DNA from: Candidatus Electronema sp. JM
GTDB lineage: Bacteria > Desulfobacterota > Desulfobulbia > Desulfobulbales > Desulfobulbaceae
Reading direction: 5' to 3'
DNA: 64,000 bases
NCBI RefSeq assembly: GCF_048287415.1
Contig: NZ_JBLWEN010000001.1
Location: 88,790 to 152,789, forward strand
Program-made: the position numbers and the translations under genes
The notes under the pieces: model-generated
Seen by the model: only the letters and a program-made list of their open reading frames with translations
Told to the model about the DNA's origin: nothing
The model's database searches: none
Shown here: piece by piece, positions 1,487-43,653 of the stretch
Numbering within the stretch: the first letter of the stretch is position 1
Layout of the letters: every line of letters begins with the position of its first letter

Positions 1487-1496
1487 GGAGGCCCGC

Positions 1497-1892
1497 ATGA
1501 AGATCAGGCTTTTTTCCTTCGGCTTCAAATATGGCCGCCCGGAAGCGGACACAGTCTTCGATGTCCGCTTTCTGCCAAATCCCTACTGGGTGCCGGAGCT
1601 GAAGGAGCGCAGCGGTCTCGACGCGGAGGTGGCCGCCTACGTGCTGGAAAGCCAGGCCGGACGGGAATTCCTCTCCCGCTTGGAACCGCTGCTGCTCTTC
1701 ATGCTCGACAGCCACCGGCAGGCTGGCCGCGAGGACTTCAGCTGCGCGGTGGGCTGCACCGGCGGCAGGCACCGCTCCGTGGCTGTGACCGAGCATCTGC
1801 GGCGGTTCTTAGCCGGAACGGCGGGCGATAAATTGGAGTTTTTTCACCGCGATATCGAGCGGACAGATGCACCATCAACTAATTTTCCCTAA
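1497..1892 (+). CDS. Stand-alone RapZ (YvcJ/UPF0042) C-terminal domain protein, lacking the N-terminal P-loop domain
   Basis: ATG is preceded by GAGGAGG, 11 nt after the ClC stop. FGFKYGRPEADTVFDVRFLPNPYW...VGCTGGRHRSV matches my recollection of the C-terminal half of RapZ. There is no Walker A and no room for one upstream. Confidence 0.7.
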   Translation: MKIRLFSFGFKYGRPEADTVFDVRFLPNPYWVPELKERSGLDAEVAAYVLESQAGREFLSRLEPLLLFMLDSHRQAGREDFSCAVGCTGGRHRSVAVTEHLRRFLAGTAGDKLEFFHRDIERTDAPSTNFP

Positions 1893-1904
1893 AGGAGAAC
1901 GAAG

Positions 1905-2960: not shown

Positions 2961-2973
2961 ACGGATGCTACGG

Positions 2974-5124
2974 CTACGGTTTCGCTTTGGGCAGACTGAT
3001 GGCAAAGACCACGCCGCTTCTGCCGTCATCAAGGTTCCGCACGCTGGCCTTGCCGCCGTGATGCTCCAAAATGGTGCGGACGATATACAGCCCCAAGCCC
3101 ATGTGCGGCCGGTCGTCTTTCACGGGCCGATTTGTTGTCATGGAGTTGAATATCTGCTGCTGGACAGCAGGGTCAATAGTCGGCCCCTGATTGACCACCT
3201 GCATGACAATGAATTCCCCCTGCTCCTCCAGCAGCAGCTCGACCGGCGTTTCCGGCAGATGGAATGAAACCGCATTTTCAACTAATTTGTCGAGGGCCTG
3301 ATGCAGGCGGACTGGATCGCCCTCGACTGCCGCTTCCTGCTCCGGCTGCTGATAGAGAAACTTCACCTCGCTGAAAGCCAACTGCCAGCCATGCTCCAGC
3401 CACATGGAAACGGCCCGGCCCAGATCGAACTGCTCTTTGCTGTCGAGAACCAGGGCATTTTTTAAACTGGCTGCCTCGCGGATTGAGGTGAGCAGGCCTT
3501 CCAGCCGCTGCACATCGCGTTCGGCCCAGCGGATGTACTCCATGATCTGCTTGGGCGGATTTTCCTGCTGCCGCCGCTGCTCCTGCTTGAGATTTTTCAA
3601 CGAAGCGGCGACACCGGCCAGCGGCGTGCGCATTTCATGCTCCAGATTGTCGGCCATCTTCTCCCGATGCTCAATCTGCTGCTGAAGCTGCTCCAGCATG
3701 GAATCCAGAGTCCGGCCCAGATCACCGATCTCATCGTGTGACCGCCGCGCCGGACGGCTGCTGCGGAGATGGCCGTCCGAAGTGATGGCTGTCGCGGCCT
3801 GATCCCGGAGTTTTCTGATCCGGCCTGAGAGGCGGTAGGCGAAGAAGAAAAACACGCCGCCGCCGAAGAGGAAGGCCAAAACGGAAAGGGTGATCGTTTC
3901 CTCAATCATCTGGTTGCCGAGCGCGAGGATGGAGTTGGTGGTCTGCTCAACCACCACCGCAGCAATGACCTTGCCGTTTTCGTGCAGCGGGGCAATGGCG
4001 GCCATTACTTCGGTCTGGCCGTCCTCCATCAGGTATTTGGTGAGCGTGTGCCTTCCTTCCAGCCCTTCCCGGATGCCCTGCATGTCCAGCTCAGTCGGCT
4101 GCGAGGCCTGCTCTTGAATTTTCACATCAGGAGCAATGGTGAAAAAACGGTACAGAGGCCGGAGCAGTTCACCAGCTTGGCGCATGATTTCGGTAAATCG
4201 ATCTGCCTCCTCAGACAGATTTTCAGGATTGCGGAGACTGCCGACCTGCGCCCGGACCCGCTGATTTTGATCCACCACCCGGATGCGGGCATAAGGCCGG
4301 TCCAAGGAACGGAGGATATCCTCTATCGGCTTGGAGGTGCCAAGCAGCCAGCCCGGCTCCTGATTGGCAGAAATATTGGCGGTGCCGATCATGGTGCGGA
4401 CACTCCGCTCCTGCTCATCGTCCACATCAGCTACGATAAAGGCCAGCTTGCTGCCGAGCAGATCAAGGGGAATGCGCAGTTCCAGCACATAGCCTCCGCT
4501 TTTCTGCTTCCATACCCCCTGAATGCGCGGCTCGCTGACCGGAAATTTGATTGGATTGCTCGGCATGAGAAAGGGGCTGATCCAGCCTGGTTCATACGGA
4601 GAAATCAAATACCGCCGCTGGCCTTGCTCATCTTCAATCACCAACTGAAGATGGTCGGAACGATCAAGGCGGAGCGAGCTGCGGCTGCGGTAGATGACCT
4701 GGTCATCTTGCACATCAAAAAAAGCGTAGAGATATTTGTCCTGCTTGCCGGTCAGATGACGGAAGCTGAGGGTTTGCGGCAAATATCCCTCTTGCGGACT
4801 GAGCAGATGCTCTTGACCAAAGGTTTTCGCCTGCTCCAGTTCTGGCTGCCAGTCATCCACATTGCCGTCCAGCCGGATGGTGTTGGAAAGCTGAAACAGG
4901 TAGAGATCGCGGCTTTGGTTGAGTGAGCGGAACTGCTCGCGGTCAAACAGGTCGCTGCGGTTGGTGAGGGCGGCCGCGACGGCCTGCGCCGTGAAATTGA
5001 GGGTGTCTTTCTGGCTGATCATCAGGCTGCGCTTGAGCGTGCTGTTCAGCCGCATTCCCAGCAGCGGGAAGAGCAGCAGCAACAGCGAGAGCAGCGCCAG
5101 TTTAGAGCGGAGGGAAATGCGCAC
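2974..5124 (-). CDS. Sensor histidine kinase with large periplasmic domain, HAMP, HisKA and HATPase
   Basis: GTG start 4 nt after the upstream RR stop. N-terminal TM helix, second TM (VLAFLFGGGVFFFFAY), H-box HEMRTPLAGV, and a G-box region GLGLYIVRTILEHHGG. Confidence 0.85.
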   Translation of the reverse strand: MRISLRSKLALLSLLLLLFPLLGMRLNSTLKRSLMISQKDTLNFTAQAVAAALTNRSDLFDREQFRSLNQSRDLYLFQLSNTIRLDGNVDDWQPELEQAKTFGQEHLLSPQEGYLPQTLSFRHLTGKQDKYLYAFFDVQDDQVIYRSRSSLRLDRSDHLQLVIEDEQGQRRYLISPYEPGWISPFLMPSNPIKFPVSEPRIQGVWKQKSGGYVLELRIPLDLLGSKLAFIVADVDDEQERSVRTMIGTANISANQEPGWLLGTSKPIEDILRSLDRPYARIRVVDQNQRVRAQVGSLRNPENLSEEADRFTEIMRQAGELLRPLYRFFTIAPDVKIQEQASQPTELDMQGIREGLEGRHTLTKYLMEDGQTEVMAAIAPLHENGKVIAAVVVEQTTNSILALGNQMIEETITLSVLAFLFGGGVFFFFAYRLSGRIRKLRDQAATAITSDGHLRSSRPARRSHDEIGDLGRTLDSMLEQLQQQIEHREKMADNLEHEMRTPLAGVAASLKNLKQEQRRQQENPPKQIMEYIRWAERDVQRLEGLLTSIREAASLKNALVLDSKEQFDLGRAVSMWLEHGWQLAFSEVKFLYQQPEQEAAVEGDPVRLHQALDKLVENAVSFHLPETPVELLLEEQGEFIVMQVVNQGPTIDPAVQQQIFNSMTTNRPVKDDRPHMGLGLYIVRTILEHHGGKASVRNLDDGRSGVVFAISLPKAKP

Positions 5125-22336: not shown

Positions 22337-25300
22337 TCACACATCCAGCTCAGAAACCTCCAGCGCGTGGTTCTGGATGAACTCGCGCCGTGGCTCGACC
22401 TTGTCGCCCATCAAGGTGACGAACAAATCATCCGCAGCCTCGGCATCCTCAATCCTGACGCGCAGCAGGGTGCGGTTGGCCGGGTTCATGGTCGTCTCCC
22501 AAAGCTGCTCCGGGTTCATCTCGCCCAAACCTTTATACCGCTGCAAATGACTGCCCCGGAAGGTCTCCTCGCGGACAACACGAATCAGCTCGCGCCAATT
22601 TTTAGCCGGAATTTCCTTCTCCTGACCAGAGGCCGCATTCTTGCAGAGGGTGAAACTGCTGCCGATGTGCTCCCTGATTTCAGGATAGAGATCAAGACCG
22701 AGCCGGTATTCGGGAATCAGCGGAATATGCGGCCCGATGACCGCACGGGTGTGGGCCAAACCTTGAAAGGCCGCCTCCGCCTCAAAGCAACTGGGCCGGG
22801 ACGCGCAAACGCGAATGCCGCTGGTGACGGCATTGATGCTGGCGAGCTTATCCAGCAGCCCGTGCAGGAACGCCTCCTCCTTGAATTGATCCGCAGAATG
22901 GACATCGTTTTCAAGCAGGAAGAGGGTGAGCTGCTCCTGAATGTTCATCCGTTCCAAGAAGGTGCTGATGCGCTCAAACAGGGTGAGCTTCTTCAGCAAA
23001 CTGACCAGTTCCTGCCCGGCCAGCACGCTGCCGTTCTCCAAGCGGACTTGCACAAACTGGGCCGCCTGATCGTAAAGGTGGTTGTTGAGCGCGTCCTCAT
23101 CCAGGAAATATTGCTCCTTCTTGCCCCGGCCCAAGCGATAAAGCGGCGGCTGGCCGATATAAACATAGCCTTGCTCGACCAGCGGCAGCATCTGGCGATA
23201 GAAGAAGGTGAGCAGCAAGGTGCGGATGTGCGCGCCGTCCACGTCCGCGTCGGTCATGATGATGATCTTGTGGTAGCGCAGCTTGCTCGCATCAAACTCC
23301 TCCCGCCCGATGCCGGTGCCCATTGCGGCGATCAATTGCTTGATCTCCTCCGAGTCGAGAATCTTGTCGAAACGTGCCTTCTCCACATTCATGATCTTGC
23401 CGCGCAACGGCAGGATGGCTTGGATGGAGCGGTCGCGGCCTTGCTTGGCACTGTTGTGAACAAACACGCCGCTGGCTAAAGCAAAATTGTGCGTGTTCGG
23501 CACTTCGATGTCGTACACATCAATACGCTCGGTCAGCTTCTCCACTGAGACAACGCGGTGGTTGTAATTGCTCACCGCTTCCAGAGCGCGTTCGGTGTTG
23601 TTATCAAAATACCGCTGGCAGAAGGTGTCAAAGCGCAGCAATGATTTGTCCTTTGTGGCAATGCGGTGCTGGCGGTAGCCTTCAAGATCAACTGCGCCGG
23701 GCCGCAGCTCGTGCCGCTTGAGCACGGCCAAAGTTTTCCGGTAATACGTCTGCTGCAACGCAGCTTGGCGGCGGGCGCGGAACTCTGCTGTCCATTGCTG
23801 CTGAGTTTTCTGACTGCGCCACGCCAGCAGCTCGGCATCGCTCCATTGCTCTTTCGCCTTTCGTGACTGCTCCGCACGGGCTTCCGGGTGCTCTTCAAAA
23901 TAGGAACGCACCCGTTCAGCTTGGGCCAAGCGGTTTTCCTCATCCTGCCAGTAGATTTTCTGCGCCTCATTCAACAAAGCGGCATTTTGCTGGCGATATT
24001 CTGCGTTGCTGCGGTAGAACTCCCGCCATTTGTCGGCCATGAAGGCTTTGTACGCCGCATCGTCCCATTGCACTTGAGCGCGTTCAGAGAGCTGCTGCCG
24101 CAACTGCATCATGCGTTGGCTCATCTTGGTGCGGAATTCAGGACTCTGCCGGACAGCCCGACTCTTTTCGATCACATCGGGCCGACGCAGGGTTCGGTCA
24201 GCGTGCTGCCGATGCAGGCGCAAATGCTCTTCCGCCGGAAGCCGCCGGATGTTGGAGGGATTGTTGTTGCGCTTATTGAAATCAAGGTGATGCCGATGTT
24301 CGCCATCTTCAGCCTGATAACCACCTGCCTTGCAGTTATATTTATCGGCAAGGACATGTGTGAATTTCCAGCGGCTGGCATTTGGTTCCCAAACCATTTC
24401 ATAGCCGTCAATGGTGATGCCCGGTTCATTCATATCCGAGAGCTTGCGATACAGCGGCATCAAAGAAGTGCCGACAGTCAGCCGTTCTGCCGGGCAATAG
24501 CTGCCATCGCGAAGCAGGAAGCGGTGATCCGGGGTGCAGACAATCTGCTCGCCATTGTCCAGCGTCACCTGCACAACTTCCTGCTGCCGCTTAGTCAGGC
24601 GCGGATGCAAAATCCGTTCGAGGCCAATCTTGCCGTCTGCTTGAATGGTGTAGCAGAAATGCTCTTTGCCCTGCTCCTGCTCGGCGATCAGCTCCAAAAA
24701 GCTGAGGGCGCGGCCATCGGCCAAAGCCACTTTGGTCTCGCCAGAAAAGCAGCCGCCCGCTGAATCGCCCTCCACGAGAAACAGCTCGCGCTCTGCCGGA
24801 TTCTTCGACTGGCATTCAGCCAGCTTGCCTGCCATCAGCAGAGAAATGCCGTCCTTCTTGCGTGACAAATCACGCGCCTTCCGCGCCGCTTCTCTGGCCC
24901 GCGCCGCCTCGACCGCCTTGCTGAGTATCTGCCGCGCCACCTGCGGGTTGCGCTCCAAGTAATCGCCAAGCTGCTCGGTGCAGATGGAAGCGACGATGCC
25001 CTTCACCTCGGAGTTGCCCAGCTTGGTCTTGGTCTGACCCTCGAACTGCGGATTCGGCACCCGCACTGAAATGATTGCAGTCAGGCCCTCGCGCACATCA
25101 TCGCCCTCCATTTTCTCCTTCATGTGCTTGGGCACAATGTCATCAGTGGCGTATTTGTTGATGCACTTGGTCAGCGCGGCGCGGAAACCCGCCACATGCG
25201 AGCCGCCTTCGCGGGTGTTGATGTTGTTGACAAAGGAAGCCAGCCGCTCAGTGTAGCTGTCCACATATTGCAGACAGACCTCGACCTGCACCTGCTCCTG

Positions 25301-26047
25301 CTCGCCTTCCAGAAAGATCGGCTGCGGATGAATCGGGGTGCGGTTGCGGTTCAGGTGCTCGACATATTCAACCACGCCGCCTTCATAATGAAACACATCC
25401 TCAGCCCCGCTTTGCTCATCCTTCAGGGTGATGTGAACGCCCCGATTGAGAAAAGCCAGCTCGCGCAGCCGGTTGAGGACGATCTCGTATTTGAACACAA
25501 CCGTCTGGGTGAATATCTCCGGGTCTGGCTTGAAAGTAATCGTGGTGCCGGTGTGCTCGCTGGTGCCAACCACCTCCAGCTCGCTGGTCTTTGCGCCGTA
25601 AGAGAAGGTCTGCCGGTAGAGCTTGCCGTTGCGCCGCACCTCAGCGGTGACATGGGTGGAGAGCGCATTGACCACCGACACGCCCACGCCGTGCAATCCG
25701 CCGGAAACTTTATAGGACGAATGATCGAACTTGCCGCCCGCGTGCAAGGTGGTCAGCACCAGCTCAAGAGCGGTCATGTTTTCCGTCGGATGCTTGTCCA
25801 CCGGAATGCCGCGTCCGTTGTCTTCGACCGAGCAGGAACCGTCCTCCAGCAGGATCACCTTAATCTGGTTGCAGTATCCGGCCAGAGCCTCGTCAATCGA
25901 GTTGTCCACCACCTCGTAAATCAGATGATGCAGCCCTTCTTCCGCCGTGTTGCCGATATACATGGACGGACGCTTGCGCACCGCCTCAAGCCCGTCAAGA
26001 ACCTTGATCTGATCCGCCCCGTAGGACGTGTTCTGCTGTTCGCTCAC
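22337..26047 (-). CDS. gyrB: DNA gyrase subunit B, interrupted by an intein
   Basis: GTG at 26047 (AGAAGG 7 nt upstream) gives the canonical N-terminus [31 protein letters not shown]. The GHKL ATPase, transducer and Toprim (EGDSAGG / SAKQGRDR) regions are present. The extein totals about 803 aa once the 433-aa insert is removed. Confidence 0.95.
23453..24751 (-). mobile_element. GyrB intein (433 aa) with HNH-type endonuclease insert
   Basis: The insert lies between EGDSAGG and SAKQGRD. Block [11 protein letters not shown] (Cys codon 24751-24749), block B TPDH, block [15 protein letters not shown], block G VFVHN|S (Asn codon ends at 23453). Internal HNH motif [29 protein letters not shown]. 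Confidence 0.9.
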
Positions 26048-26352
26048 TTGCTTGCCTTCTCTGAAGAATTTATACGGAAAACGGCATGGTTGCGATGCGG
26101 CGCGCCGCATCCTGCCGGAAGCGGCTCATCATACCATAGTTCCGGCAAAAACGGGGAAAAATCTGCGGTTTGCAAGGAATTTTATCCAGATGGCCGCGCC
26201 GCCGCCAAGGAGCATTCCAGCGCGGAGCACTGCTGGCAAAATATGCAATAACGAAGAAAACAGGAACAGCCTGAATACAGTGGCATTTTTTCGCTACGAC
26301 TGGTATGATGGGCGGAGCTTGCCATTTTTATTTTTCATTGAGGAGAAGCGTT

Positions 26353-33006: not shown

Positions 33007-35025
33007 TTACAGGCCGCGAACTGGCGGCAAGGAAAGGGCAAGCCGGAAGCCCAAGTCGTCGCTGCGGTTGTCCGGCGAGTACCAGTAGCGGAACGCCGCC
33101 CGCACGAACAAGGGTGAGTCGCCCCAGCTACCGCCGCGAAACACGCGGCTCGAGCCTTTCTCAGGGCCAATCGGATTGCCCTTAGGACTGACAGCGTAAT
33201 AACCACTGTTGTACCAATCCGCGCACCACTCCCAGACATTGCCGTGCATGTCGTGAAGGCCCCAAGCGTTGGCCTTCTTTTCACCAACTGGATGGGTTGT
33301 ATTGCCGGAATTTTTGCCGTACCAAGCATAGTCCTGAAGCTGCGCCTCATCATCACCAAAGCACCAAGCCGACTCACTGCCTGCCCGGCAGGCATATTCC
33401 CACTCCGCTTCGGTGGGGAGGCGATAGGTGTGACCTGTTTCCTGACTCAGCCATTGACAGTAGGCAACCGCATCGTCCCAGCTTACATTGATCACCGACC
33501 GCTGCCCTCTGCCCCAGCCCCTGTTTTCTTTACCTGTGGCCTCACAGAAAACATCGTACTCGGCAAAGGTGACTGGATAGCGGCCAATGGCAAAGCTGTC
33601 CAGTTCCACCTCATGCACCGGTCGTGCATCGTCACTGCCATTGCCCTGAATATCTCCCATGCGGAAACGACCGCCGCGTATAAGCATCATCTTTATTCCG
33701 AGTCCACCGCCAAAAGACTCCGGCAAAAGACAAGGTAAGGCAATCTGATCAACGTGCCTGAATATCCCATCAGCAAGATCAACAAAGCGCACGAGCTGAT
33801 CCGTGGCCCGCAGCGGTGTTTGTTCAGCCAACTGCTTCTGCACGATGCCCCAAGCTAAGAGGAACTCCTGCACCGTGTAATGGCTGAAGCGGAAGGCGCG
33901 GTCAGAGTTGCGGTTGAGCAAAGATCGTCCGCCCAGCTCGAACTGCTCCAGCCAGGCTATGTTCGCGTCCGCACGGATGAGCTGCTTCAGCTCATCCTCT
34001 GAGAGTACCCGCGTGCCCTGCCGCTGCATCCGCTCCGCAATCCGCAGGCAGGCCAGAAAGAGTTCCTTGCGCTCAGGCACCTGCTCGCCTTGATGCTGCT
34101 CCCGCAGCTTGCGCACTTCCCGGTCAAGCCATTCCTCCACCGTGTAGGTGTTCCAGTCTTGGCGGCGGCAGTCCTTGGCCAGCAGCTTGTCAATATGCTG
34201 AAGGAGCATGGGCCGCATCCGCAAATCCTGCATGTGCTTGAGCAGACAGTCCGCCTTGGCCCGCTCATCCCTGATCTTCCCAGCCTGAAAGCACAGACGA
34301 TGGTGCCAATGCAAGGGCAGCTTGCGCTCAATGAAGTCCTGCACTTGGGCATCGGTGAAGGGGGAAAGATACAGCACCGGGCAGTGATAGCCGGACAGCA
34401 CCCTGATCTCCGGGCGGCCAAAGCGGTCTGGCTCCATCTCCGGGAAGAACTGCGTCCGGCTGGAGATGAGCACCCGGCGGAAATCCTCGCTGGCGCGCAG
34501 CAGCTCCAGCAGGCGGTCGCGGATGCGCTTCCATGCCTGCGGGTCTTCGTCCAAGGCATCGAGCAGCAGGACGGTCCCGCCCTTGTTCGGCAGAGCCTGC
34601 ACGCGCTCCAAGGTGTCTTTCCCCAGCTTGAACAGGGCGCAGCCATGCCCCTTGGGCCAGAAGCTGGTCAGGTGCATGAGCTTGATCATCAGCAGCAGCG
34701 AGGTCTTGCCCATCCCAGCATCAGAGAGGATGAACATCTGGTGGCGGCCATCCTTCTCCAAAGGCAGACCGCCCTGAAAGAACTCGTTGATCCGCTCAAA
34801 GGCAGGCTGCCGGGCCGCAGAGAGCAGGTCGTCCTGCTGCACATCCGCCGGGTTGCGGTCTTGCAGGAACGGCTCAATGTAGAGGCCGCGCAGGGTTTCA
34901 GGATCAACGAACTCGTCCCGCAGACGGTCAAGCTCCTGCTTCCGCTCGCCGGTCAGTTGCGTGAGCCGCTTCCAAAGATCCTTAATCCACGCTGGCTTGA
35001 CAAAGCTCAGGACTTCCAAGGCCAT
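33007..35025 (-). CDS. NACHT-like STAND P-loop NTPase fused to a C-terminal FGE-sulfatase (SUMF1-type) domain
   Basis: Walker A SDAGMGKTSLL and Walker B VLLLDALDE. The C-terminal ~270 aa carry RGGRFRMGD...PVHEVELDSFAIGRYPVT..EY..F......WDDAVAYCQWLS...YRLPTEAEWEYACRAG...GLHDMHGNVWEWCADWY. RBS AGGAGGG. Confidence 0.8.
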   Translation of the reverse strand: MALEVLSFVKPAWIKDLWKRLTQLTGERKQELDRLRDEFVDPETLRGLYIEPFLQDRNPADVQQDDLLSAARQPAFERINEFFQGGLPLEKDGRHQMFILSDAGMGKTSLLLMIKLMHLTSFWPKGHGCALFKLGKDTLERVQALPNKGGTVLLLDALDEDPQAWKRIRDRLLELLRASEDFRRVLISSRTQFFPEMEPDRFGRPEIRVLSGYHCPVLYLSPFTDAQVQDFIERKLPLHWHHRLCFQAGKIRDERAKADCLLKHMQDLRMRPMLLQHIDKLLAKDCRRQDWNTYTVEEWLDREVRKLREQHQGEQVPERKELFLACLRIAERMQRQGTRVLSEDELKQLIRADANIAWLEQFELGGRSLLNRNSDRAFRFSHYTVQEFLLAWGIVQKQLAEQTPLRATDQLVRFVDLADGIFRHVDQIALPCLLPESFGGGLGIKMMLIRGGRFRMGDIQGNGSDDARPVHEVELDSFAIGRYPVTFAEYDVFCEATGKENRGWGRGQRSVINVSWDDAVAYCQWLSQETGHTYRLPTEAEWEYACRAGSESAWCFGDDEAQLQDYAWYGKNSGNTTHPVGEKKANAWGLHDMHGNVWEWCADWYNSGYYAVSPKGNPIGPEKGSSRVFRGGSWGDSPLFVRAAFRYWYSPDNRSDDLGFRLALSLPPVRGL

Positions 35026-35193
35026 GCTTCCCTCCTTTTTTACTGTTCCTCACCTGCACGACTGTAAATCAGTTCCCAGCCGCAAGCAAGCCGAAAAGCC
35101 CTCTTCGCCTGCCGCAGTTGCAAATTGGCGGCAAGCTGCGTAATATGCTGCGGATGACAATTCTCTCCCGTAACCGCAGCAGACAAGGCCAGC

Positions 35194-38100
35194 ATGAATA
35201 CTACCCAGCCGCCGCCCATCGCCTCCAAGGCTCTTGAAGCCAACTTCCAGCAGACCGCCAGTGCCGTTGCAATTTCTCCCCGCTACGCCCCGCTGCGGGA
35301 GGCCGTGGCCCGCTATCAGGGCTTGTCCGCCCGGCTGGAGCACCTGCTCTACGAAATCAGCCACCCGTTCCGCAACTGGCAGCTCATCATCGCCGAGCTG
35401 CGGCCCTTTGTCCTCAAGAATCTCAATCATTACCTCAGCCATGCGCAGGGGCCGGACTGCTTCGCCCTCTTCAGCTCGATCTTCCTGGACGCGCTGAAGG
35501 ACTCGCGCAAAAACAGCAAGGTCATCGCCCTGACCATGGAGGCCATGCTCGCCTATGCGGACAAAGTCGTCGCCTCGCTCAAGCCGGACATGCTGCCGCT
35601 CTACGGCCCGCAGCTCAACGCTTTTTTCGAGCAGCTCGCCCGCTTGGACGAGATAGACAGCAGCCTGATGGCGCACATGGTGCAGGGCCATCATCCGATG
35701 AAGAAGATGGCGGCCCAGCTCATCAGCCTGAGCCGCAGCGCGGGCGCGGAAACCTTCTCCTGCGCTGCGGCGGCCAAGCTGCTGCGGAAAATCCTCGAAA
35801 TCAACTATGCCTGCTGGCTGGGCGAAGAGGATCCGCAGCCTTGGTTCGAGTCGCAGTGCGGCGGCGGCAGCTGCTGCGGTCAGGCCGGAACCGACTTGGC
35901 GGCGATCTCTCACAGCCGGATGCGCGAGCATCTGACCGCGCTGGAGCAGATCAGCATTGACGAGGATCCGCAGGAGGCCCTCAGCCGCATCTTGGAGCTG
36001 CCCGCGCATATCGACATCGTCCGCCTCTACCGGGAAATCCCCGGCAAATTAGGCGAACATGCTGCGGACACCGACCCGGCGGCGGTGGAGAACCGGAAGC
36101 TCTTCTTCCTCTTCCGCATCATGGAGACCTCCGGCCTCTCGCTCATTCATGAGGAAACCCTGCGCGAGATCAACCGTTCTTTGGTGCAGCTCATCCGCCG
36201 TCAGAGCTTTGACGAGATTGCCGAGTTTTTCACCACCGCCTTTCACTTGCTCAAGGCCAATGTGCGCAAATATCCGCACACTTCGCTGCAATGTATTCAG
36301 GTCATCGGCGGTGAAGTCTTCCAGCGCGGCAACTCGCGTTTAGTTGAAGCCTTCCTCTTCGAGACCGTGCGCTTCGGCTTCCAGCACGCCAATGTCATGG
36401 GCGTGGACGAGGACTGGCAGCCGATCAGCAACCCGGCGCATTTGGCCAACATCCGGGTCTGGCTGAACTTGATCATGCAGGAGCCGAAATGGTGCTCGAC
36501 GCTCTTCTCGGCCCTGATCATCAACCTGCGTCTCTCCGGCACCTGCGTCAAAGACACCGACCTCTTCCAGCGCGACATCACCCAGCTCCTCAATCATCCC
36601 ATCGGCCCGATCTATAACTTGGCCAAGCAGTTCAGCAAGCTGATGCCGGTCTTCTTCAATGAGATCGGCGCGGAAGGCGAGCTGCGCGATGTCTCCACCG
36701 AATTGGATGAACTGCACAAGCGGCACGACGTGCTCATTCATTTTCTCCGCAAGCAGTCGCACGTCGAGTCGTCGAACCTGATTGTCGGCTTCATCCGGGC
36801 CATCTACAGCTTCTGGCTGACCTTGGACAAGAAACCGCTGGCCGCCTATCTGCCGGAAGAAATCCTCAGTCAGGTGGCGAGCAGCGGCCCTTATGTGGAC
36901 GAGCTGCATCTGCTCGCTCAACAGGTGCGCGAGGAATTGGAATACAGCACAGTGGACGAGCTGCTGACCTGGGACGAGGCGGAGCGGAAAGACTGGCTGC
37001 TGCGCCAGAGCGACATTTCCGCTGGCGAGCGCAAACGCTTTGACCTGCTGGTGCGGATGTTCAAGCTGCTCCACCACAAATACAGCTTGGGCATGGATGA
37101 GCTGCGCGGTCAGCTCGAGCACGCGGTGCAGAACGGCTTCCCGGAAATGACCGAGCTGCTGGAGGTTTTGGAGCACGGCGACACCTGGACCTGCTTGGAC
37201 GCAGTGCTGACGCAATTAGAGCAGCTTAAAGAGACCATCCTCAGCGACAAGAAATTTGCGCCGAAGGAGGAAATTTACTACAAGCGGCACATCGCGGTGG
37301 ATATTCCTTCCGTCTATGGCCGCTATTCGGAGCGCAAATTTGACGCGCTCGGCCTGACCTTCCGCTTGGAGAGCCTGGCCAATATTTATTTGGAACGGCT
37401 GAACCGCTCGATCAATCTCGGCTTCATCACCCAAGCCACCTTCATCGGCATCGCCAAAAGCCTCAGCCTCTCTCTCCGCGCCCTGAAGATTGACGGCATC
37501 AGCAGCCGCCGCTTGGACACCTACACCAGCCTGCTCAACTCCTCGATCAGCATCAAACGCTTCACCTACACCCAGCACTTGGACATCTTCCGTGGGTTGT
37601 CAGAAGGGGTGAAGGATGTGATTTATGCCTATTACACCAATATTCATCAGAACAATCTCTCGGTCATCATTCCCCAGATCGGCGGCGAGAATCTGCTGAC
37701 CAAAAACCGGACGCTCTGGGACGAGAAGGACATGTCCTCGACCGTGCACCGCCTTTCCGAGTCCTTCTTCCGCGACCTGATCGCAGCCACCTTCGGCCTC
37801 CAGCATTTGGACAACTTCATCACCCGCATCATCCACACGCTGGAGGCGCAGCGCGACATTCTCGACGAGCAGACCCTCGACCTGCTCATGACCTACAACC
37901 CGGAAATCGCCATCTCCTCGCTCTACAACGAGAATCCGCTCACGCACAACCTGATTCATCTCGGCAACAAGGGCTTCAACCTCATGCTCTTGGCCAACGA
38001 CGGCAAGCCGGTGCCGCCCGCCTTCATCATCACCACTGAAATATTCCGCTGCTGGCAGGCGGTGCAGGGCTTCACCAAGGCGCGGGAGGAGTTTATGCAG

Positions 38101-39444
38101 CGGCTGCACACCTCCATCACCGGCTTGGAGGAGCGCACAGGCCGCCGCTTCGGCTCGCCGGAAAACCCGCTGCTGCTTTCGGTGCGTTCCGGCGCGGCGA
38201 TTTCCATGCCCGGCATGATGACTACGATCCACAACGTCGGCCTGAACGAGGATTTGCTGGAGGAGCTGTGCGTCAAGCACCCGGAGCAGGAGTATTTTCT
38301 CTGGGACACCTACCGCCGCTTCCTGCAATCTTGGGCGATGGGCGAAGGCATGGGCCGCGAGGAGTTCGGCGCGCTGATGAACGCGCACAAGAAACGCTAC
38401 GGCAAGCGGCTGAAACGCGAATTCAGCCCGGCGCAGATGCGCGAGCTGGCTCTTGAATACCGCAACGCCATGCGGCGGCACGGATGCAGCGCGCCGGAAG
38501 ATCCTTGGCTTCAGCTGGTGCGGGCGGTGGAGATGGTGCTGGATTCGTGGAGCACCCATAAAGCCCGCCAGTACCGCCACCTGATGGCCGTCTCCGACGA
38601 CTGGGGCACAGCAGTGATTGTCCAGACGATGGTCTATGGCAACCGCAATCAGCAGTCCGGCAGCGGCGTGCTCTTCACCGCCCATCCCTACCGCAAGGTG
38701 CGGCGGGTCGCGCTCTGGGGCGATTACGCCTCCGGTGATCAGGGCGAGGACATCGTCTCCGGCCTTGTCACCAGCTATCCGATCTCGGTCGAGCAGGCGG
38801 AGCTGGACGGGCGTTCGGTCGAGCAGAGCCTCGAACGCCGCTTCCCGGAGATCTACGAGCAGCTCCTCAGCATCTCCCGCGACTTGGTGTACACTAAAGA
38901 ATGGAACCCGCAGGAGATTGAGTTCACCTTTGAAAGCCCTGACCCGGACGATCTCTACGTGCTCCAGACCCGCGACATGATCACCATCAAGAAGAAGGAG
39001 CATTTCCGGGTCTTCGAGGAAAGCGAGGCGCAGCAGGCGGCGGTGCTCGGCAAGGGCATCGGCGTGAGCGGCTCCGCCATCTCCGGCCTGGCTGTCTTCA
39101 CCGACGAAAACATCCGCCAGCTCCGCCACGAGCAGCCGGACATGCCGCTCATCCTCCTCCGCCAGGACACGGTGCCGGAGGACATCCGGGAAATCTCCAT
39201 GTGCGACGGCCTGCTCACCGCGCGCGGCGGCCAGACCTCGCACGCTTCCGTGGTCGCAACGCGCTTGGAGAAAACCTGTGTGGTCGGCTGCCGCGACTTG
39301 CAGGTCTTCGAGGACAAGGAGCAGGCGGCCATCAACGGCCTTGTGATAAAATTCGGCGACCCGGTCTCCATTGACGGGCGCAGCGGCCTCTTCCTGCGCG
39401 GCATCCATCCGACGCGAGAAGAGGTGCATATTTTGCCGCTGTAG
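35194..39444 (+). CDS. 1416-aa PPDK-like protein: ~900-aa unknown helical N-terminal region + PPDK-type ATP-grasp + swivelling phospho-His domain, with no PEP/pyruvate TIM-barrel domain
   Basis: From about residue 915 it reads HLGNKGFNLMLLA..G.PVPPAFIITTE, LLLSVRSGAAISMPGMMTTIHNVGLN, GVLFTAHPY and GDQGEDIVSG. The mobile domain is GLLTARGGQTSHASVVATRLEKTCVVGC. The protein ends about 65 aa after the catalytic-His motif. Confidence 0.75.
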   Translation: MNTTQPPPIASKALEANFQQTASAVAISPRYAPLREAVARYQGLSARLEHLLYEISHPFRNWQLIIAELRPFVLKNLNHYLSHAQGPDCFALFSSIFLDALKDSRKNSKVIALTMEAMLAYADKVVASLKPDMLPLYGPQLNAFFEQLARLDEIDSSLMAHMVQGHHPMKKMAAQLISLSRSAGAETFSCAAAAKLLRKILEINYACWLGEEDPQPWFESQCGGGSCCGQAGTDLAAISHSRMREHLTALEQISIDEDPQEALSRILELPAHIDIVRLYREIPGKLGEHAADTDPAAVENRKLFFLFRIMETSGLSLIHEETLREINRSLVQLIRRQSFDEIAEFFTTAFHLLKANVRKYPHTSLQCIQVIGGEVFQRGNSRLVEAFLFETVRFGFQHANVMGVDEDWQPISNPAHLANIRVWLNLIMQEPKWCSTLFSALIINLRLSGTCVKDTDLFQRDITQLLNHPIGPIYNLAKQFSKLMPVFFNEIGAEGELRDVSTELDELHKRHDVLIHFLRKQSHVESSNLIVGFIRAIYSFWLTLDKKPLAAYLPEEILSQVASSGPYVDELHLLAQQVREELEYSTVDELLTWDEAERKDWLLRQSDISAGERKRFDLLVRMFKLLHHKYSLGMDELRGQLEHAVQNGFPEMTELLEVLEHGDTWTCLDAVLTQLEQLKETILSDKKFAPKEEIYYKRHIAVDIPSVYGRYSERKFDALGLTFRLESLANIYLERLNRSINLGFITQATFIGIAKSLSLSLRALKIDGISSRRLDTYTSLLNSSISIKRFTYTQHLDIFRGLSEGVKDVIYAYYTNIHQNNLSVIIPQIGGENLLTKNRTLWDEKDMSSTVHRLSESFFRDLIAATFGLQHLDNFITRIIHTLEAQRDILDEQTLDLLMTYNPEIAISSLYNENPLTHNLIHLGNKGFNLMLLANDGKPVPPAFIITTEIFRCWQAVQGFTKAREEFMQRLHTSITGLEERTGRRFGSPENPLLLSVRSGAAISMPGMMTTIHNVGLNEDLLEELCVKHPEQEYFLWDTYRRFLQSWAMGEGMGREEFGALMNAHKKRYGKRLKREFSPAQMRELALEYRNAMRRHGCSAPEDPWLQLVRAVEMVLDSWSTHKARQYRHLMAVSDDWGTAVIVQTMVYGNRNQQSGSGVLFTAHPYRKVRRVALWGDYASGDQGEDIVSGLVTSYPISVEQAELDGRSVEQSLERRFPEIYEQLLSISRDLVYTKEWNPQEIEFTFESPDPDDLYVLQTRDMITIKKKEHFRVFEESEAQQAAVLGKGIGVSGSAISGLAVFTDENIRQLRHEQPDMPLILLRQDTVPEDIREISMCDGLLTARGGQTSHASVVATRLEKTCVVGCRDLQVFEDKEQAAINGLVIKFGDPVSIDGRSGLFLRGIHPTREEVHILPL

Positions 39445-39451
39445 CTGATGG

Positions 39452-39478
39452 CGAAAAAGGGGCGAAGAAAATCGCCCC
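39452..39478 (-). terminator. Rho-independent terminator of the AT-rich operon (hairpin shared with the convergent PPDK-like gene)
   Basis: GGGGCGA (39459-39465) pairs with TCGCCCC (39472-39478). Read on the minus strand, the hairpin is followed directly by TTTTT. Confidence 0.6.
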
Positions 39479-39495
39479 AGTAGAATCAGCGCAAA

Positions 39496-40212
39496 CTATT
39501 GAGCAGTGCCTTTTCGAGGAATCTTCAGCCGTAGTCTTGGATAAATTAAGTTTGGGTTATCCATCAACTGAGGATGCTTCTCTTTATTTGCCAAAATAAT
39601 TTCTTGAACAGAAACGTGGTGTCGTTCAGCGATCTTTCCTAAACAATCGCCTTCCATTACTTGATAGCAGTCTTTGCCTAAATAGCAATCAACAGTCTCC
39701 TTTAGTTCTGTGATATTTTCTGGATTGGCATAGAATATGTAGACTGGCGCGAAAATCAAAGAAACAGCGTACCATCTTTTTTTACGAAATATCCATCTAA
39801 TGTTTATTGTTTTTTCATAAATTTTTTTTATTTTGCTTTTGCAATTTTCAATAAAAATTATGCCGCCGCTCAAGATGCCATCTATTTTATAGACAAAAAC
39901 AGGCAGATTCGACCTGTATTTCCGTATCAATCTATTTCCATATCCTTCCATGTAAAGAAGGATAAAAAACAATGTAAAAACACAGAATGCTATTATTTTA
40001 AATAAAATCATTAAAATCCAAGGAAGCACCCGGAGCGCAAGCCAAGGAATCAACAACATCAATACGAAAAGAATAACAAACGGGAGTGCAACGGATAGCC
40101 ATTCTGATCTTGATGCAGAAAATAGCTGTTCGGAAATAACTTGGAAGAAAAGAATACCTTTTATAAGGTATTCATCTTGAATTTGGTTTAACAGGCTATT
40201 CAGGCGTTCCAT
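39496..40212 (-). CDS. Island gene D: polytopic membrane protein with C-terminal LysM domain
   Basis: There are 3-4 hydrophobic helices (LSVALPFVILFVLMLLIPWLAL, ILMILFKIIAFCVFTLFFILLY, AVSLIFAPVYIFY). The LysM-like C-terminus is YQVMEGDCLGKIAERHHVSVQEIILAN...IYPRLRLKIP. The start overlaps the gene C stop by 17 nt. Confidence 0.7.
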   Translation of the reverse strand: MERLNSLLNQIQDEYLIKGILFFQVISEQLFSASRSEWLSVALPFVILFVLMLLIPWLALRVLPWILMILFKIIAFCVFTLFFILLYMEGYGNRLIRKYRSNLPVFVYKIDGILSGGIIFIENCKSKIKKIYEKTINIRWIFRKKRWYAVSLIFAPVYIFYANPENITELKETVDCYLGKDCYQVMEGDCLGKIAERHHVSVQEIILANKEKHPQLMDNPNLIYPRLRLKIPRKGTAQ

Positions 40213-41437
40213 CTCTCCTTATTGATTCAGGGTGTATATTAATATCCGCACTTTCTTCTTGTTGATCCTGTTGTTTTTCCTCGCTGGATGACTTTTCTCC
40301 AATAAGAGCAGCTCCTTGGTCTGACAATCTTCCTACCTTCTGCACAAGTGATTTGGCAATATCCTCAAACCTCCATTCGCCGATCACACCTTTTTCAACG
40401 AAAATTTTTAATATTTCTATACAAGTTGAATTCTCTTCAACACGCATCTTCTCTTCCCTGTCTATTTGCTGTTTGACAAATGAAAGCAATTCTCTGTCGT
40501 TTGGATTTTCTGGATTGCATATTGCAATAATTCCGCGCCAATTACCAATTGACAGGAGCGGCGACAGCAGCGTTTCCCTATTTAGCCTATGATTGAATTC
40601 AATTCGCTGCATTTCAAGCTGCTTCTCAAATTCAATCTGCTTGATTCGCATCTCTGCTTCCATTTTCTTCAATTCAAAATTCATACTTTGTTCCAGCAGG
40701 ATAGTTTGCCTATAAAGCTCAATTTTCCTATCCTTAAATAGCAGCTCCTGTCTCATGGACTCTATCTCCATTTTCTGCTGCATCAGCCGTTTTTCCATTT
40801 CAGCCTTTATGGCATCTACCGAGAATTGCTCCTGAATGATTTTTTCTTGATTTTTTGCATCTATCGTCCCCAGCTTTCCATCAATCAGCCTTTTGCTGAT
40901 GGATTCATGTGGCGACAGCGTAACGAATGGAGGACGGCTTAACTTGAATCCTAAGTCATGAATTTTATTGCCATATATCAATTGACTTTTAAGCTCCTCA
41001 ACAACAGCTCGTTCTGCCTGCGATGCCTGCTCGTTCGCATAGTTTCGACAGATAGGCCGGATTATATCAAGAGCTGACTCTTTTAAAAAATCCCGAATGT
41101 CTCTCCTTCCATTCTGCACAATAAGCAATGGATTATCTATGCAATAAGTCAATGTGACTTCAGCTTGAAAAGGGAGTTCGTCAGCACAAGGAATACTTAC
41201 TGAAAAAAGAATTGAATATTCCGACAGATCAACTTCATAATACACCTTATATGTGCCGATGAGAATGTCGCCAGCTGTCGGCCCGCCATTTTTTCCTGCG
41301 TAAACAACAATTGGCGGACAATTTTCTCCAAGAAAGACATGTGCCTTTCCGAATTTCGGCGATTCAGGCCGTTTGAAGGAAAATTTTTCCAGTTTTCTCT
41401 CAATAACAAGCGGATATTCTTCAGGAGCGAAATCCAT
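40196..41437 (-). CDS. Island gene C: SPFH/band-7-like N-terminal domain + long coiled coil (flotillin-like architecture), putative
   Basis: FSVSIPCADELPFQAEVTLTYCIDNPLLIVQNG..DIRDFL resembles the SPFH beta-alpha core. Residues ~195-290 are Glu/Lys/Met/Gln-rich heptad-like sequence. The start overlaps the gene B stop by 17 nt. Confidence 0.5.
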   Translation of the reverse strand: MDFAPEEYPLVIERKLEKFSFKRPESPKFGKAHVFLGENCPPIVVYAGKNGGPTAGDILIGTYKVYYEVDLSEYSILFSVSIPCADELPFQAEVTLTYCIDNPLLIVQNGRRDIRDFLKESALDIIRPICRNYANEQASQAERAVVEELKSQLIYGNKIHDLGFKLSRPPFVTLSPHESISKRLIDGKLGTIDAKNQEKIIQEQFSVDAIKAEMEKRLMQQKMEIESMRQELLFKDRKIELYRQTILLEQSMNFELKKMEAEMRIKQIEFEKQLEMQRIEFNHRLNRETLLSPLLSIGNWRGIIAICNPENPNDRELLSFVKQQIDREEKMRVEENSTCIEILKIFVEKGVIGEWRFEDIAKSLVQKVGRLSDQGAALIGEKSSSEEKQQDQQEESADINIHPESIRRDGTPE

Positions 41438-42929
41438 TTTTTATCTCTGTTAAAATTTTCAAGGAAGTTTCAGATTCATCAGACCATTTTTCTAAGTACG
41501 CGCAAATGCAATTGCGATTTCTTGGAATACGAGAGACATCATATAAAATTCTTGCGAGAGTTTTCCAGAATTTTCCGTGCATGTCAATATGTTTCAGCCA
41601 CTTGAATATTTCAGTAAGAGCAAGTCGTCTGATTGGCTCCGAATCAAAAACTCTTTGCAGCAGACGGACAATGAGTTCTTCCGTCTTTGCTTTCTCTTCC
41701 GCAAGAATAAGAAGGCTCGGATGCTGGGAGCCGTCTTTAATTGACCAAGAAATACGCATCAAATCTGAAAATATAAGCAGAGACAAGCGATGAAGCGAGG
41801 ATTTTTTCTCCTGCCGTCCCCATTGGTTAAGAGATTGCAGAACGAGAACCGACGAACTTGATTGCTTGAAGAGCCATTTGACAGCATAAGCTATATCTTT
41901 AAAGAGTATTCCGTTGCCTGAATTTGCAATATTTCTTAAATCTTCGAGAGCTTGTTCAGGAAAATGCTGACCAAGACAAGAGCAATATGCGAAAATTGCA
42001 GTTTGATTCAATTTGACTGAATTTTTCAGACTACTCCAATAATGAATACTATTTAAAGAAAGTTGAGCAACATCTTCGTTTTCATCATATAAAACAACTG
42101 CAAGCGCAAATCCAACTAATTTTTGGATAGATTGACTTTCTGATTTTGCCCAAGGCAACAATATTTGGTCACGAACCGGTTGAAATTCATACCGTGCCAG
42201 CCGACCCGCTGTTGCTGCTGCTCTCAGTCTGATTTGAGAATTTTCATGTTTCCCTAACTCAAACAACCATTGCAGCATTGCTTTTGCATAAACATCACGT
42301 TCATGCCAGATGTGATGCAAAACAGTTTCTGGAGTTTCTTGGTCATCAAATGCAACTTTCTTGACAGGACTTTTGCCGCATTCGGTAACTTCGCAATCAT
42401 TTTCAAGATGCGCTGATATGTCTTTAAGCCACTGACTCCTTTTCTTTTCCTCTATCTCTTCGTCCAGATTAGAAGTATTTTCTATCTCCGCTTCCTTCCG
42501 CGACTGCAACCGAATGATATTTTGCAAATACTGGCTCGCCTCATCAACTAATCGGTAATTGCAGCCATTAAACACTGACAGTGAAATGATAAAACTGCGC
42601 CTGCTTTTGCAGCTATCAAATATAGATTCGATAGAAGAATCAAACGATTTATCTTTGTCCGCTTGCGTTTTTTGGCCAGAATAATTGCTCTGATCTCCGG
42701 CGATTATCGAGCCAGTATTATTTATATTGCTGTTTGATGCATGAAACCCTCCAGTGTAATTATAATTTTTAATTATTTGAATAATAGTTCTGCTGTTCTC
42801 TGTAAAATCATCTGTTTCGTTCGTATGTATTTTATTGTATTTTATAGATTCTTCAACAGATTTTATACCGTCATCTTCAGAAAGATGATCAATTTTTTCA
42901 AAGAAATTTTCTTCGTCGCCTTGTTCCAT
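41421..42929 (-). CDS. Island gene B: hypothetical protein with an acidic/Asn-rich N-terminus and a HEAT/ARM-like helical repeat body
   Basis: A 502-aa ORF at about 35% GC. The HEAT-like motif IRLRAAATAGRLARY is present. The N-terminal motif TGSIIAGDQ echoes the gene A C-terminus. I recognised no enzymatic motif. Confidence 0.6.
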   Translation of the reverse strand: MEQGDEENFFEKIDHLSEDDGIKSVEESIKYNKIHTNETDDFTENSRTIIQIIKNYNYTGGFHASNSNINNTGSIIAGDQSNYSGQKTQADKDKSFDSSIESIFDSCKSRRSFIISLSVFNGCNYRLVDEASQYLQNIIRLQSRKEAEIENTSNLDEEIEEKKRSQWLKDISAHLENDCEVTECGKSPVKKVAFDDQETPETVLHHIWHERDVYAKAMLQWLFELGKHENSQIRLRAAATAGRLARYEFQPVRDQILLPWAKSESQSIQKLVGFALAVVLYDENEDVAQLSLNSIHYWSSLKNSVKLNQTAIFAYCSCLGQHFPEQALEDLRNIANSGNGILFKDIAYAVKWLFKQSSSSVLVLQSLNQWGRQEKKSSLHRLSLLIFSDLMRISWSIKDGSQHPSLLILAEEKAKTEELIVRLLQRVFDSEPIRRLALTEIFKWLKHIDMHGKFWKTLARILYDVSRIPRNRNCICAYLEKWSDESETSLKILTEIKNGFRS

Positions 42930-42942
42930 TTTTGATCTCTCT

Positions 42943-43353
42943 TCATTTTTTATTTATTTGATCCCTGCCTATAAAAGTCCCTTCATTGACAAAGGTGGAA
43001 TTTTTGATAAGCACACCTCCTGTTTGCACAATTCTTTCTACCTTTACCCCATAAAGCCGTGCGATATCTAACGCTAATTCCTGATCTTCTTGGAGCAGCT
43101 TTTTCACTTGAAAGTGCAGAGTCTTCTGCGCATCTTCTTCTGAAGGATCCCGTACCACATCTTCTGCCGCCATTTTCACACCTTCAACTCTTGCAGAAGA
43201 ACGGGAAGAAATTTTTGTCCAGACAGCCTTGGCCGTCTCCCATCCGTCAGAACCTATTTTTTCTAACGCTCCTCCCAGTATCTGTCCCCCACCGCTCAAC
43301 AGATAAGGAAGTACTGGCACTAAAGAAGAAACAACCATTTCAGCAAGTTCCAT
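42943..43353 (-). CDS. Island gene A: small helical protein (136 aa) resembling N-terminal adaptor modules of conflict-system NTPases
   Basis: LVPVLPYLLSGG..ILGGALEKIGSDGWETAKAVWTKI...DPSEEDAQKTLHFQVKKLLQEDQELALDIARL is followed by EGTFIGRDQ. It is the first gene of the operon, 13 nt upstream of gene B. Confidence 0.55.
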   Translation of the reverse strand: MELAEMVVSSLVPVLPYLLSGGGQILGGALEKIGSDGWETAKAVWTKISSRSSARVEGVKMAAEDVVRDPSEEDAQKTLHFQVKKLLQEDQELALDIARLYGVKVERIVQTGGVLIKNSTFVNEGTFIGRDQINKK

Positions 43354-43653
43354 AGTTTTTTCTCAATGTCTCAAGTTGTTCCAGCAGCCAGAGCAATTCA
43401 GGCTTGACAAGGGCAGGCTGCCGATGAATACTGCGCTGCTCAGTATGTGATCACCTGCAATAAATTTCAAGTATTTTAAAAGGGCTTTTGAGCTGCCTTG
43501 CTGCCTGTCTCGGCGGTGCAACAGCGGAGGCCGTCACATCGTTTACATTGAAAAAACAAGGCTACAGGTCACAGCTTGGATTGAGCATTTACGTCGAGGA
43601 AGTTTTCAAATTATCTAAAAACTGAAATACTACAGCTTGCATGTCCGGCAGCT

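Follow-up and report, generated by a model that had tools for sequence, protein, structure and literature searches.

Architecture of the NACHT-FGE gene

The 64,000-nucleotide stretch of the Candidatus Electronema sp. JM genome analysed here (the window; contig NZ_JBLWEN010000001.1, positions 88,790 to 152,789) carries, on its reverse strand, a gene for a NACHT-type STAND NTPase that ends in a domain of the formylglycine-generating enzyme (FGE) type. Candidatus Electronema is a freshwater cable bacterium; cable bacteria are centimetre-long multicellular filaments. The gene (33007..35025) encodes 672 amino acids (aa) from an ATG start, and its product is protein P0001 of this organism (100% identity). 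The features of the gene, in window coordinates and with the basis of each assignment, are as follows.

33007..35025, minus strand: complete coding sequence of a NACHT-type STAND NTPase with a hypervariable, putative sensor domain of FGE/C-type-lectin fold (open reading frame (ORF) list, translation)
35031..35037, minus strand: Shine-Dalgarno sequence AAGGAGG, 5 nt before the ATG (read from the sequence)
34891..35025, minus strand: N-terminal two-helix hairpin of ~45 aa (alignments; AlphaFold2 helices at aa 11-22 and 26-38)
34306..34890, minus strand: nucleotide-binding domain, aa 46-240 (motifs, alignment, Foldseek)
33706..34305, minus strand: helical and winged-helix domains, aa 241-440 (motif, conservation, AlphaFold2, NOD2 alignment)
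33037..33693, minus strand: FGE-sulfatase/C-type-lectin-fold domain, aa 445-663, predicted to be non-catalytic (Pfam, PDB sequence search, Foldseek)
33031..33156, minus strand: putative variable repeat (VR) of the diversity-generating retroelement (DGR) type, occupying the 42 C-terminal codons of the FGE domain, aa 624-665, GSSRVFRGGSWGDSPLFVRAAFRYWYSPDNRSDDLGFRLALS (translation, ortholog variability)
33013..33028, minus strand: inverted repeat GCCGC-CAGTTC-GCGGC with a 5-bp stem, directly 3′ of the VR; a weak candidate for a DGR target-recognition hairpin

A first, sequence-only reading of this DNA had described clear Walker A and B motifs, and both are readily found in the translation, the first as SDAGMGKTS at aa 101-109 (34699-34725) and the second as VLLLDALDED at aa 152-161 (34543-34572). 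In an alignment of 74 homologs, G104, G106 and K107 of Walker A and D156 and D161 of Walker B are invariant, and the sensor-1 residue R190 is nearly so (≥90%). The Walker B motif fits the NACHT signature that Koonin and Aravind reportedly gave in 2000, namely hhhhD followed by the acidic D[GAS]hDE. Further downstream, FRFSHYTVQEFLLA at aa 378-391 (33853-33894) is a winged-helix motif of the NACHT type (FxHxSxQEFL-type), in which F380 and H382 are invariant and E387 and F388 nearly invariant in the same alignment. An AlphaFold2 model built from the 74 homologs has a mean pLDDT of 87, and its best Foldseek match besides FGE folds is ADP-bound NOD2 (5irm_C, E = 1.1e-10 over 459 columns). The Pfam matches to NTPase families all lie below their gathering scores (NACHT PF05729, 11.3 bits against 26.7; nSTAND3 PF20720, 12.8 against 27.2; NPHP3_N, 15.0 against 24.8; E-values 0.03-0.3), so that the label 'NACHT-like' is based on the motifs and on the structural similarity to NOD2. 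The gene product is a NACHT-type STAND NTPase switch joined to a C-terminal FGE-fold domain.

About 100 aa precede the P-loop, close to the ~95 noted before, and as noted before they contain no obvious effector. Only the first ~45 form a separate element ahead of the NTPase, the two-helix hairpin; aa 46-100 belong to the conserved NTPase core. The hairpin is kept across the family, with F8, L17, L21 and E31 nearly invariant in the alignments. No Pfam match was obtained for aa 1-95 at E ≤ 1, and the N-terminal region gave no NCBIfam or PADLOC match. The N-terminus (MALEVLSFV...) may resemble the 'MADA' helices of plant CC-NLR proteins, a likeness to which we gave no weight. Neither a signal peptide nor a transmembrane segment is present in the JM protein (maximum KD19 1.16).

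The C-terminal domain is FGE-like and predicted to be non-catalytic

The C-terminal domain matches the Pfam profile FGE-sulfatase (PF03781) at aa 445-663 with E = 3.9e-60, covering profile positions 4-254 of 255. Nearly the whole profile is thus present, as expected for the full FGE domain previously ascribed to the last ~270 aa, but the span is about 220 aa. In a sequence search of the PDB the top match was TvpA of Treponema denticola (2Y3C, E = 4.1e-34, aa 533-664), ranking above PvdO and the true FGEs, and Foldseek with the model also matched PvdO, TvpA and FGE. TvpA is a DGR variable protein with the FGE-type C-lectin fold, and its VR occupies the same C-terminal position; its chain, however, has 294 residues and lacks an NTPase module, whereas the JM protein is fused to a NACHT switch and is free of signal peptide and transmembrane segments. 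TvpA is a surface lipoprotein.

Catalytic FGEs bind Cu(I) through two cysteines (C336 and C341 in human FGE; the LCHDSYC segment in S. coelicolor). When the JM protein is aligned to 6MUJ, the first of these cysteines falls in a gap and the second on L639, a hypervariable position with 13 residue types among 26 orthologs. The JM protein has the fold of FGE (SUMF1), PvdO and EgtB, a strong PF03781 match and the motifs RLPTEAEWEYA and HGNVWEW, but the two Cu-binding cysteines of FGE are absent, the active-site segment is hypervariable and the scores lie far under the NCBIfam equivalog cut-offs (PvdO, 129 against 500; EgtB, 90 against 360). The domain is best regarded as non-catalytic on these sequence grounds. 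A housekeeping sulfatase-maturation enzyme was considered and is ruled out, as both catalytic cysteines are missing. The earlier proposal that the FGE-type domain is a C-terminal sensor module is supported by the present analysis.

A putative variable repeat at the end of the gene

Orthologs of the JM protein are 64-88% identical overall, but their sequences are scrambled over the final ~35 residues ahead of the conserved LGFR motif. Among 26 orthologs, the variable sites fall within aa 626-657, with 9-13 residue types per column at 635-657, and are set in a scaffold of invariant (R630, G631, G632, G659, F660 and R661) and nearly invariant (R642, R646 and P651) residues. Mean pairwise identity at 17 VR sites is 0.14, compared with 0.73 outside the VR (325 pairs). 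Identity at the VR sites is uncorrelated with identity elsewhere (r = 0.12), and even pairs with 90% identity over the rest of the protein have about one of the 17 VR sites in common. A paralog group from the same genomes served as a control, and shows an identity of 0.56 at the same sites and 0.53 elsewhere.

The changes are also unevenly distributed within codons. Comparison of the JM gene with its orthologs in Electronema aureum GS and Electronema V4 gives 16, 16 and 6 varying sites at codon positions 1, 2 and 3 of the VR, against 74, 60 and 184 in the remaining gene. Typical codon sets at VR sites are GGC/GAC/TGC, TAC/GAC/GGC and AAC/TTC/ATC, in which the third-position C is kept. Changes at positions 1 and 2 of NNC codons with retention of the C are the signature of DGR adenine mutagenesis of AAC codons. 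The last 42 codons therefore appear to carry the mutation signature of a DGR variable repeat, and a VR at this place would explain the presence of an FGE fold there. The inverted repeat directly 3′ of the VR has longer counterparts in the GS and V4 genes; in DNA folding it scored z = −0.9, no better than shuffled sequences.

Template repeats in cable bacteria and other genomes

A metagenome scan with a degenerate pattern for VR and template repeat (TR) returned a contig (L052) with a DGR cassette, consisting of an HRDC gene, a reverse transcriptase (RT) gene with the motifs IGNLVSQ and YMDD, an AAC-rich TR and a caspase gene. The last of these (1940-3007 of the contig), directly downstream of the TR, encodes a secreted caspase-like protein (Peptidase_C14). 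A matching VR is found on a second contig of the same sample and, by eye, 8/8 differences between the two repeats are at TR adenines. The relatives of the L052 RT are of the Desulfuromonadales type, with no named cable-bacterium RT among the best 120 matches, and the cassette is therefore heterologous with respect to Electronema. The sites that vary among the JM, GS and V4 VRs match the adenines of its TR (25/29 versus 17/97, p = 2e-11).

A template peptide for Electronema was predicted from the three VRs and used as a protein query; the top match was an ORF of 73 aa from Candidatus Electrothrix sp. EH2. Contig QYKX01000139.1 of EH2 carries a complete cassette (positions 1-3602) made up of a partial FGE target, an HRDC gene, an RT gene, a TR and a second HRDC-like gene. 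Mismatches between the EH2 TR and its own VR are confined to template adenines (13/13, with 0/95 at other bases), and cable bacteria therefore carry bona fide DGRs of the HRDC-RT-TR type. The FGE domain of the target next to this cassette differs from that of the NACHT-FGE family.

The JM VR and the EH2 TR, a heterologous template, align from an identical first base (GGCTCG...), and their mismatches are concentrated at template adenines (20/31, versus 15/95 elsewhere; p = 6e-7). The VR of the Electrothrix ortholog P0013 shows the same pattern, with 19/30 at adenines and 9/78 elsewhere. The template repeat of JM is predicted to read about GGCTCGAACCGCGTGATTCGCGGCGGTAGCTGGAACAACACACCCAAAAACGTGCGGGCGGCGAACCGCAACAAGAACACACCAGACAACCGCAACAACGACTTGGGCTTCCGG, with a length of ~130 nt.

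In the GTDB species-representative genomes, the matches to a VR/TR pattern other than that in GS were in unrelated, mostly actinobacterial genomes and were taken as chance, and the same, longer pattern found 0 matches in IMG/VR. Public protein databases contain dozens of 'FGE-sulfatase family proteins' of 45-79 aa (P0241-P0286) that are apparently translated DGR template repeats. Seven of the eight read have the Asn-rich form ...RGGSWNN...NRNRN...NRNNNLGFR..., and one protein, P0254, extends further upstream.

Relatives of the NTPase module

A search with the NTPase module (aa 1-440) at E ≤ 0.001 retrieved 1748 cluster representatives. For nearly all of the 150 best, the aligned region begins no more than ~20 residues from the N-terminus, and proteins lacking an effector are therefore the norm in this clade. 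Among 63 clade members, the C-termini comprise 46 with pentapeptide repeats, 13 with FGE domains and a few with WD40 repeats, and the N-termini include one TIR and one DUF4062 domain. When these 63 were compared with Pfam (E ≤ 0.001), 25 matched nSTAND3 and eight matched NACHT. They form a divergent clade on the border between NACHT and nSTAND3, the architectures of which follow the grammar of NLR-like conflict proteins, and the TIR and DUF4062 members are consistent with an immune-type family.

Genome context, orthologous loci and paralogs

On one side of the JM gene lie genes for a HAD hydrolase and SbcC, with gyrB ~7 kb further on. The gyrB gene (22337-26110, minus strand; 1257 aa) contains an intein at about aa 453-889, recognised by the NCBIfam models for gyrB and for the N- and C-terminal splicing regions of inteins. 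On the opposite side, across a gap of 168 bp, is a divergently transcribed ORF of 1416 aa (35194..39444, plus strand) in which the PPDK ATP-grasp and swivel phosphohistidine domains are limited to aa ~920-1400, the first ~900 aa being without a family match. Beyond it, at 39400-43400, is an AT-rich island with a GC content of 0.37-0.49, compared with ~0.58, and four genes on the same strand: LysM, SPFH/Band7, and ORFs of 502 and 136 aa that gave no Pfam, NCBIfam or PADLOC match. Horizontal transfer may have brought in the island. Another AT-rich stretch occurs at 17.7-21 kb of the window.

If the NTPase worked together with these neighbours, the arrangement might be expected to recur at other loci. 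Eight orthologous loci were compared: Electronema GS, V4, VV and JAABPV01, Electrothrix scaldis, GW3-4 and MTKS01, and one JGI contig. PPDK-like, SPFH or LysM neighbours were found at 0/8 of these. The divergent adjacency noted in the sequence-only reading is real, but the functional pairing it suggested, and the recurrence among homologs by which it was to be checked, find no support at these loci. The linkage to PPDK, SPFH and LysM genes was accordingly rejected for lack of synteny. The proposed PADLOC check likewise returned no defence-model match for the protein or for the PPDK-like and island neighbours, and among the JM neighbours as a whole gave nothing but generic SMC-head matches for SbcC. 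The genes on either side of the JM gene include none for a MoxR, vWA or peptidase protein.

The flanks of the Electronema orthologs differ at each locus and consist of housekeeping genes. In the JAABPV01 locus, the second gene upstream of the ortholog (L058, 6903-8147) codes for a TIR-beta-helix (NosD-like) protein and may be a separate defence gene. At the Electrothrix scaldis locus, a caspase gene and TGase_elicitor genes are found 6-10 kb upstream. In Electrothrix the gene adjoins a paralog near trkA-rpmH-rnpA-yidC. The two form a tandem (L005, 10001-15065; L059, 7084-11829) in which the paralog is ~47% identical and its VR-equivalent segment is conserved (WDS.ERFIRSSFRF.LSPGLRIIRVGFRVA). 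This arrangement recalls the sensor/helper pairs of NLR proteins; in Electronema, including JM, the gene is solitary. No contig location was found for the JM paralog, P0046.

A proposed receptor diversified by a retroelement

Taken together, the JM protein is probably a soluble, cytoplasmic NLR-like receptor, in which a NACHT switch is combined with a non-catalytic FGE sensor whose binding surface is written by a DGR. In such a receptor the STAND NTPase would act as a nucleotide-dependent oligomerisation switch, and the FGE/C-type-lectin-fold domain would bind a ligand, presumably from a phage or other invader, through the surface encoded by the last 42 codons. The RT of a DGR would copy the template repeat with errors at adenines, and the resulting complementary DNA would replace the VR in the gene, so that some 17 residues, the majority of them encoded by NNC codons, become randomised and those of the scaffold stay fixed. 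As the 64-kb window around the JM gene has no DGR cassette, the gene would be a remote or orphaned target, and we infer that JM still has a cognate template and RT. By analogy with characterised bacterial and eukaryotic NLRs, binding of the ligand would relieve autoinhibition and allow the NTPase to oligomerise. The conserved 45-aa N-terminal hairpin is the sole candidate for an output element, either by recruiting an effector encoded elsewhere or by acting itself once clustered. Alternatively, the protein could cooperate with an adjacent fixed paralog, as arranged in Electrothrix, or could simply sequester the ligand, a possibility put forward by Kaur et al. 2020.

A more far-reaching scheme has only a slim chance of being correct. 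It supposes that cable bacteria retain one chromosomal NLR-like receptor with an antigen-binding site that a distant DGR rewrites in trans, providing an anticipatory, adaptive-like immunity along the filament, and that this receptor, having no enzymatic effector, signals via the hairpin, which would be a membrane-inserting helix of the resistosome type or a new homotypic adaptor, with the Electrothrix tandem as a sensor/helper pair.

Several observations weigh against a receptor that is still being diversified, or against a role in immunity. A blastn search of the 64-kb window for a copy of the TR (word size 7, E ≤ 10) gave the self match only, and the six-frame ORFs of at least 200 aa in the window contain no YxDD motif of an RT. 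Five orthologous genes, including those of GS, E. scaldis, V4 and GW3-4, have no TR within 10 kb, and the gene lists for the same distance around the orthologs show no DGR RT. The pattern scan of the GTDB representatives found the VR of Electronema aureum GS, and no Electronema TR. The adenine test for JM rests on the templates of other organisms, and against these heterologous templates 15-20% of the non-A positions differ as well. In one ortholog pair (P0022 and P0025) the VR is nearly static, so the system is not maintained everywhere. The ortholog of Electronema sp. VV (L060, 10001-11708) is split into a NACHT portion of 467 aa and an FGE remnant of 113 aa, is ~410 bp shorter than the syntenic V4 gene and is decaying, so that in at least one lineage the receptor is disappearing. 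PADLOC gave 0 matches to the JM protein at E ≤ 1, no effector was identified for it, and the role of its clade in defence is putative.

Some of these points would be accounted for if the gene were a fossil target, that is, if an ancestral DGR had diversified the VR and JM had since lost the cassette, leaving a receptor of fixed specificity or one in decay. The missing TR and RT in the window, the missing TR in the GS representative genome, the broken VV ortholog and the static P0022/P0025 pair all favour such a history, as does the paralog group, which demonstrates that a formerly VR-like segment can become fixed. We nevertheless consider it unlikely, if clearly the first alternative to keep in mind. 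Even the nearest orthologs at hand, those 90% identical elsewhere, are fully randomised relative to each other at the VR sites, so that diversification went on after the species had split; a bona fide DGR is present in an extant cable bacterium, EH2; and the JM ORF is intact with all of its NTPase motifs.

Hypervariability could also arise by ordinary positive selection or by recombination among paralogs, with no retroelement involved. Diversifying selection is common in immune receptors and no cognate TR was found in the JM window, yet this explanation is very improbable. It does not predict retention of the third-position C alongside the use of all four bases at positions 1 and 2, and it leaves unexplained both the coincidence with adenines of independent DGR templates and the ~85% non-A identity between an Electrothrix TR and an Electronema VR, across genera. 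The paralogs carry a different, conserved sequence in this segment and cannot be donors.

That the protein is a sensor coupled to the PPDK-like gene, the SPFH/LysM island or both as an output in trans is suggested by their adjacency, divergent orientation and 168-bp gap, but is improbable in the extreme given that none of the eight orthologous loci has such neighbours, that other housekeeping genes flank the gene each time, that PADLOC has no match for the neighbours, and that the other flank in JM leads through a HAD hydrolase and SbcC to gyrB. Least credible is an NTPase-regulated enzyme with a catalytic FGE domain (generating formylglycine, or performing EgtB- or PvdO-like oxidative chemistry), to which the strong Pfam and NCBIfam similarity and the source annotation 'SUMF1/EgtB/PvdO family nonheme iron enzyme' point, but against which stand the absence of both Cu-binding cysteines (a gap and the hypervariable L639), the lack of a DinB domain with the EgtB iron site, NCBIfam scores well short of all cut-offs, and the fact that the active-site segment of FGE is here the hypervariable one.

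Relation to known systems

Proteins that combine NACHT or nSTAND modules with FGS/CLec domains have been described as DGR-diversified sensors of the 'antigen receptor type' in multicellular bacteria (PMC7159879; bioRxiv 10.1101/2023.09.22.558884; bioRxiv 10.1101/2022.07.19.500537; PMC13581612), and FGE-type sensors are included in a 2026 survey of STAND proteins (PMC13581612). As of the 2023 preprint, none of the FGS-type members had been tested experimentally (bioRxiv 10.1101/2023.09.22.558884). The closest counterparts are the DGR3 and DGR6 targets of Thiohalocapsa PB-PSB1 (bioRxiv 10.1101/2023.09.22.558884; PMC7159879), which have the same central STAND NTPase and a single C-terminal FGE-type C-lectin domain ending in the VR. 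The hosts are multicellular in both cases, the DGR3 target likewise has no identified N-terminal effector or adaptor, and a cassette of the HRDC-RT-TR type occurs in the cable-bacterium lineage (Electrothrix EH2). In contrast to the Thiohalocapsa targets, the JM target is located away from a cassette, and no ortholog was found to have one within 10 kb; the gene is present as one copy, with orthologs shared by two genera and set in unrelated housekeeping neighbourhoods; and it lacks an EAD adaptor and a neighbouring peptidase.

The bNACHT and Avs proteins share the layout of an NTPase with a C-terminal 'antigen-receptor-type' sensor, the FGS type being listed among these (bioRxiv 10.1101/2022.07.19.500537; PMC13581612). 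The characterised members, however, have enzymatic effectors or known adaptors at the N-terminus, and recognise phage proteins via C-terminal repeats or other non-FGS C-termini. The EruA model NF058535 matches the JM protein weakly, with 23.9 bits against a cut-off of 1000, and over aa 98-237 of the NACHT part only. The ternary and EAD-adaptor conflict systems of Kaur et al. 2020 differ in that the JM protein has no known EAD or Death-like adaptor, and no MoxR/vWA partner nearby; its N-terminal hairpin may be an adaptor of a kind not yet described.

NACHT-FGE targets of DGRs in multicellular bacteria are thus already published, and the JM gene adds to this class of putative variable immune receptors. 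What is new is the cable-bacterium host, the distance from any cassette, the orthology across two genera, and the lack of an effector, a known adaptor or a peptidase partner. The literature searched contained no paper linking cable bacteria or Electrothrix with DGRs.

The database names of such proteins, 'nonheme iron enzyme' or 'formylglycine-generating enzyme', can be corrected to that of a non-catalytic, hypervariable putative receptor, and the predicted TR peptide, used as a query, offers a quick route to DGR cassettes. The JM gene also raises the question of how a STAND protein without an effector produces an output. The presence of diversified orthologs and fixed paralogs in the same genomes provides a natural comparison for the gain and loss of DGR targeting, and cable bacteria would join the multicellular bacteria that diversify NLR-like sensors by means of DGRs.

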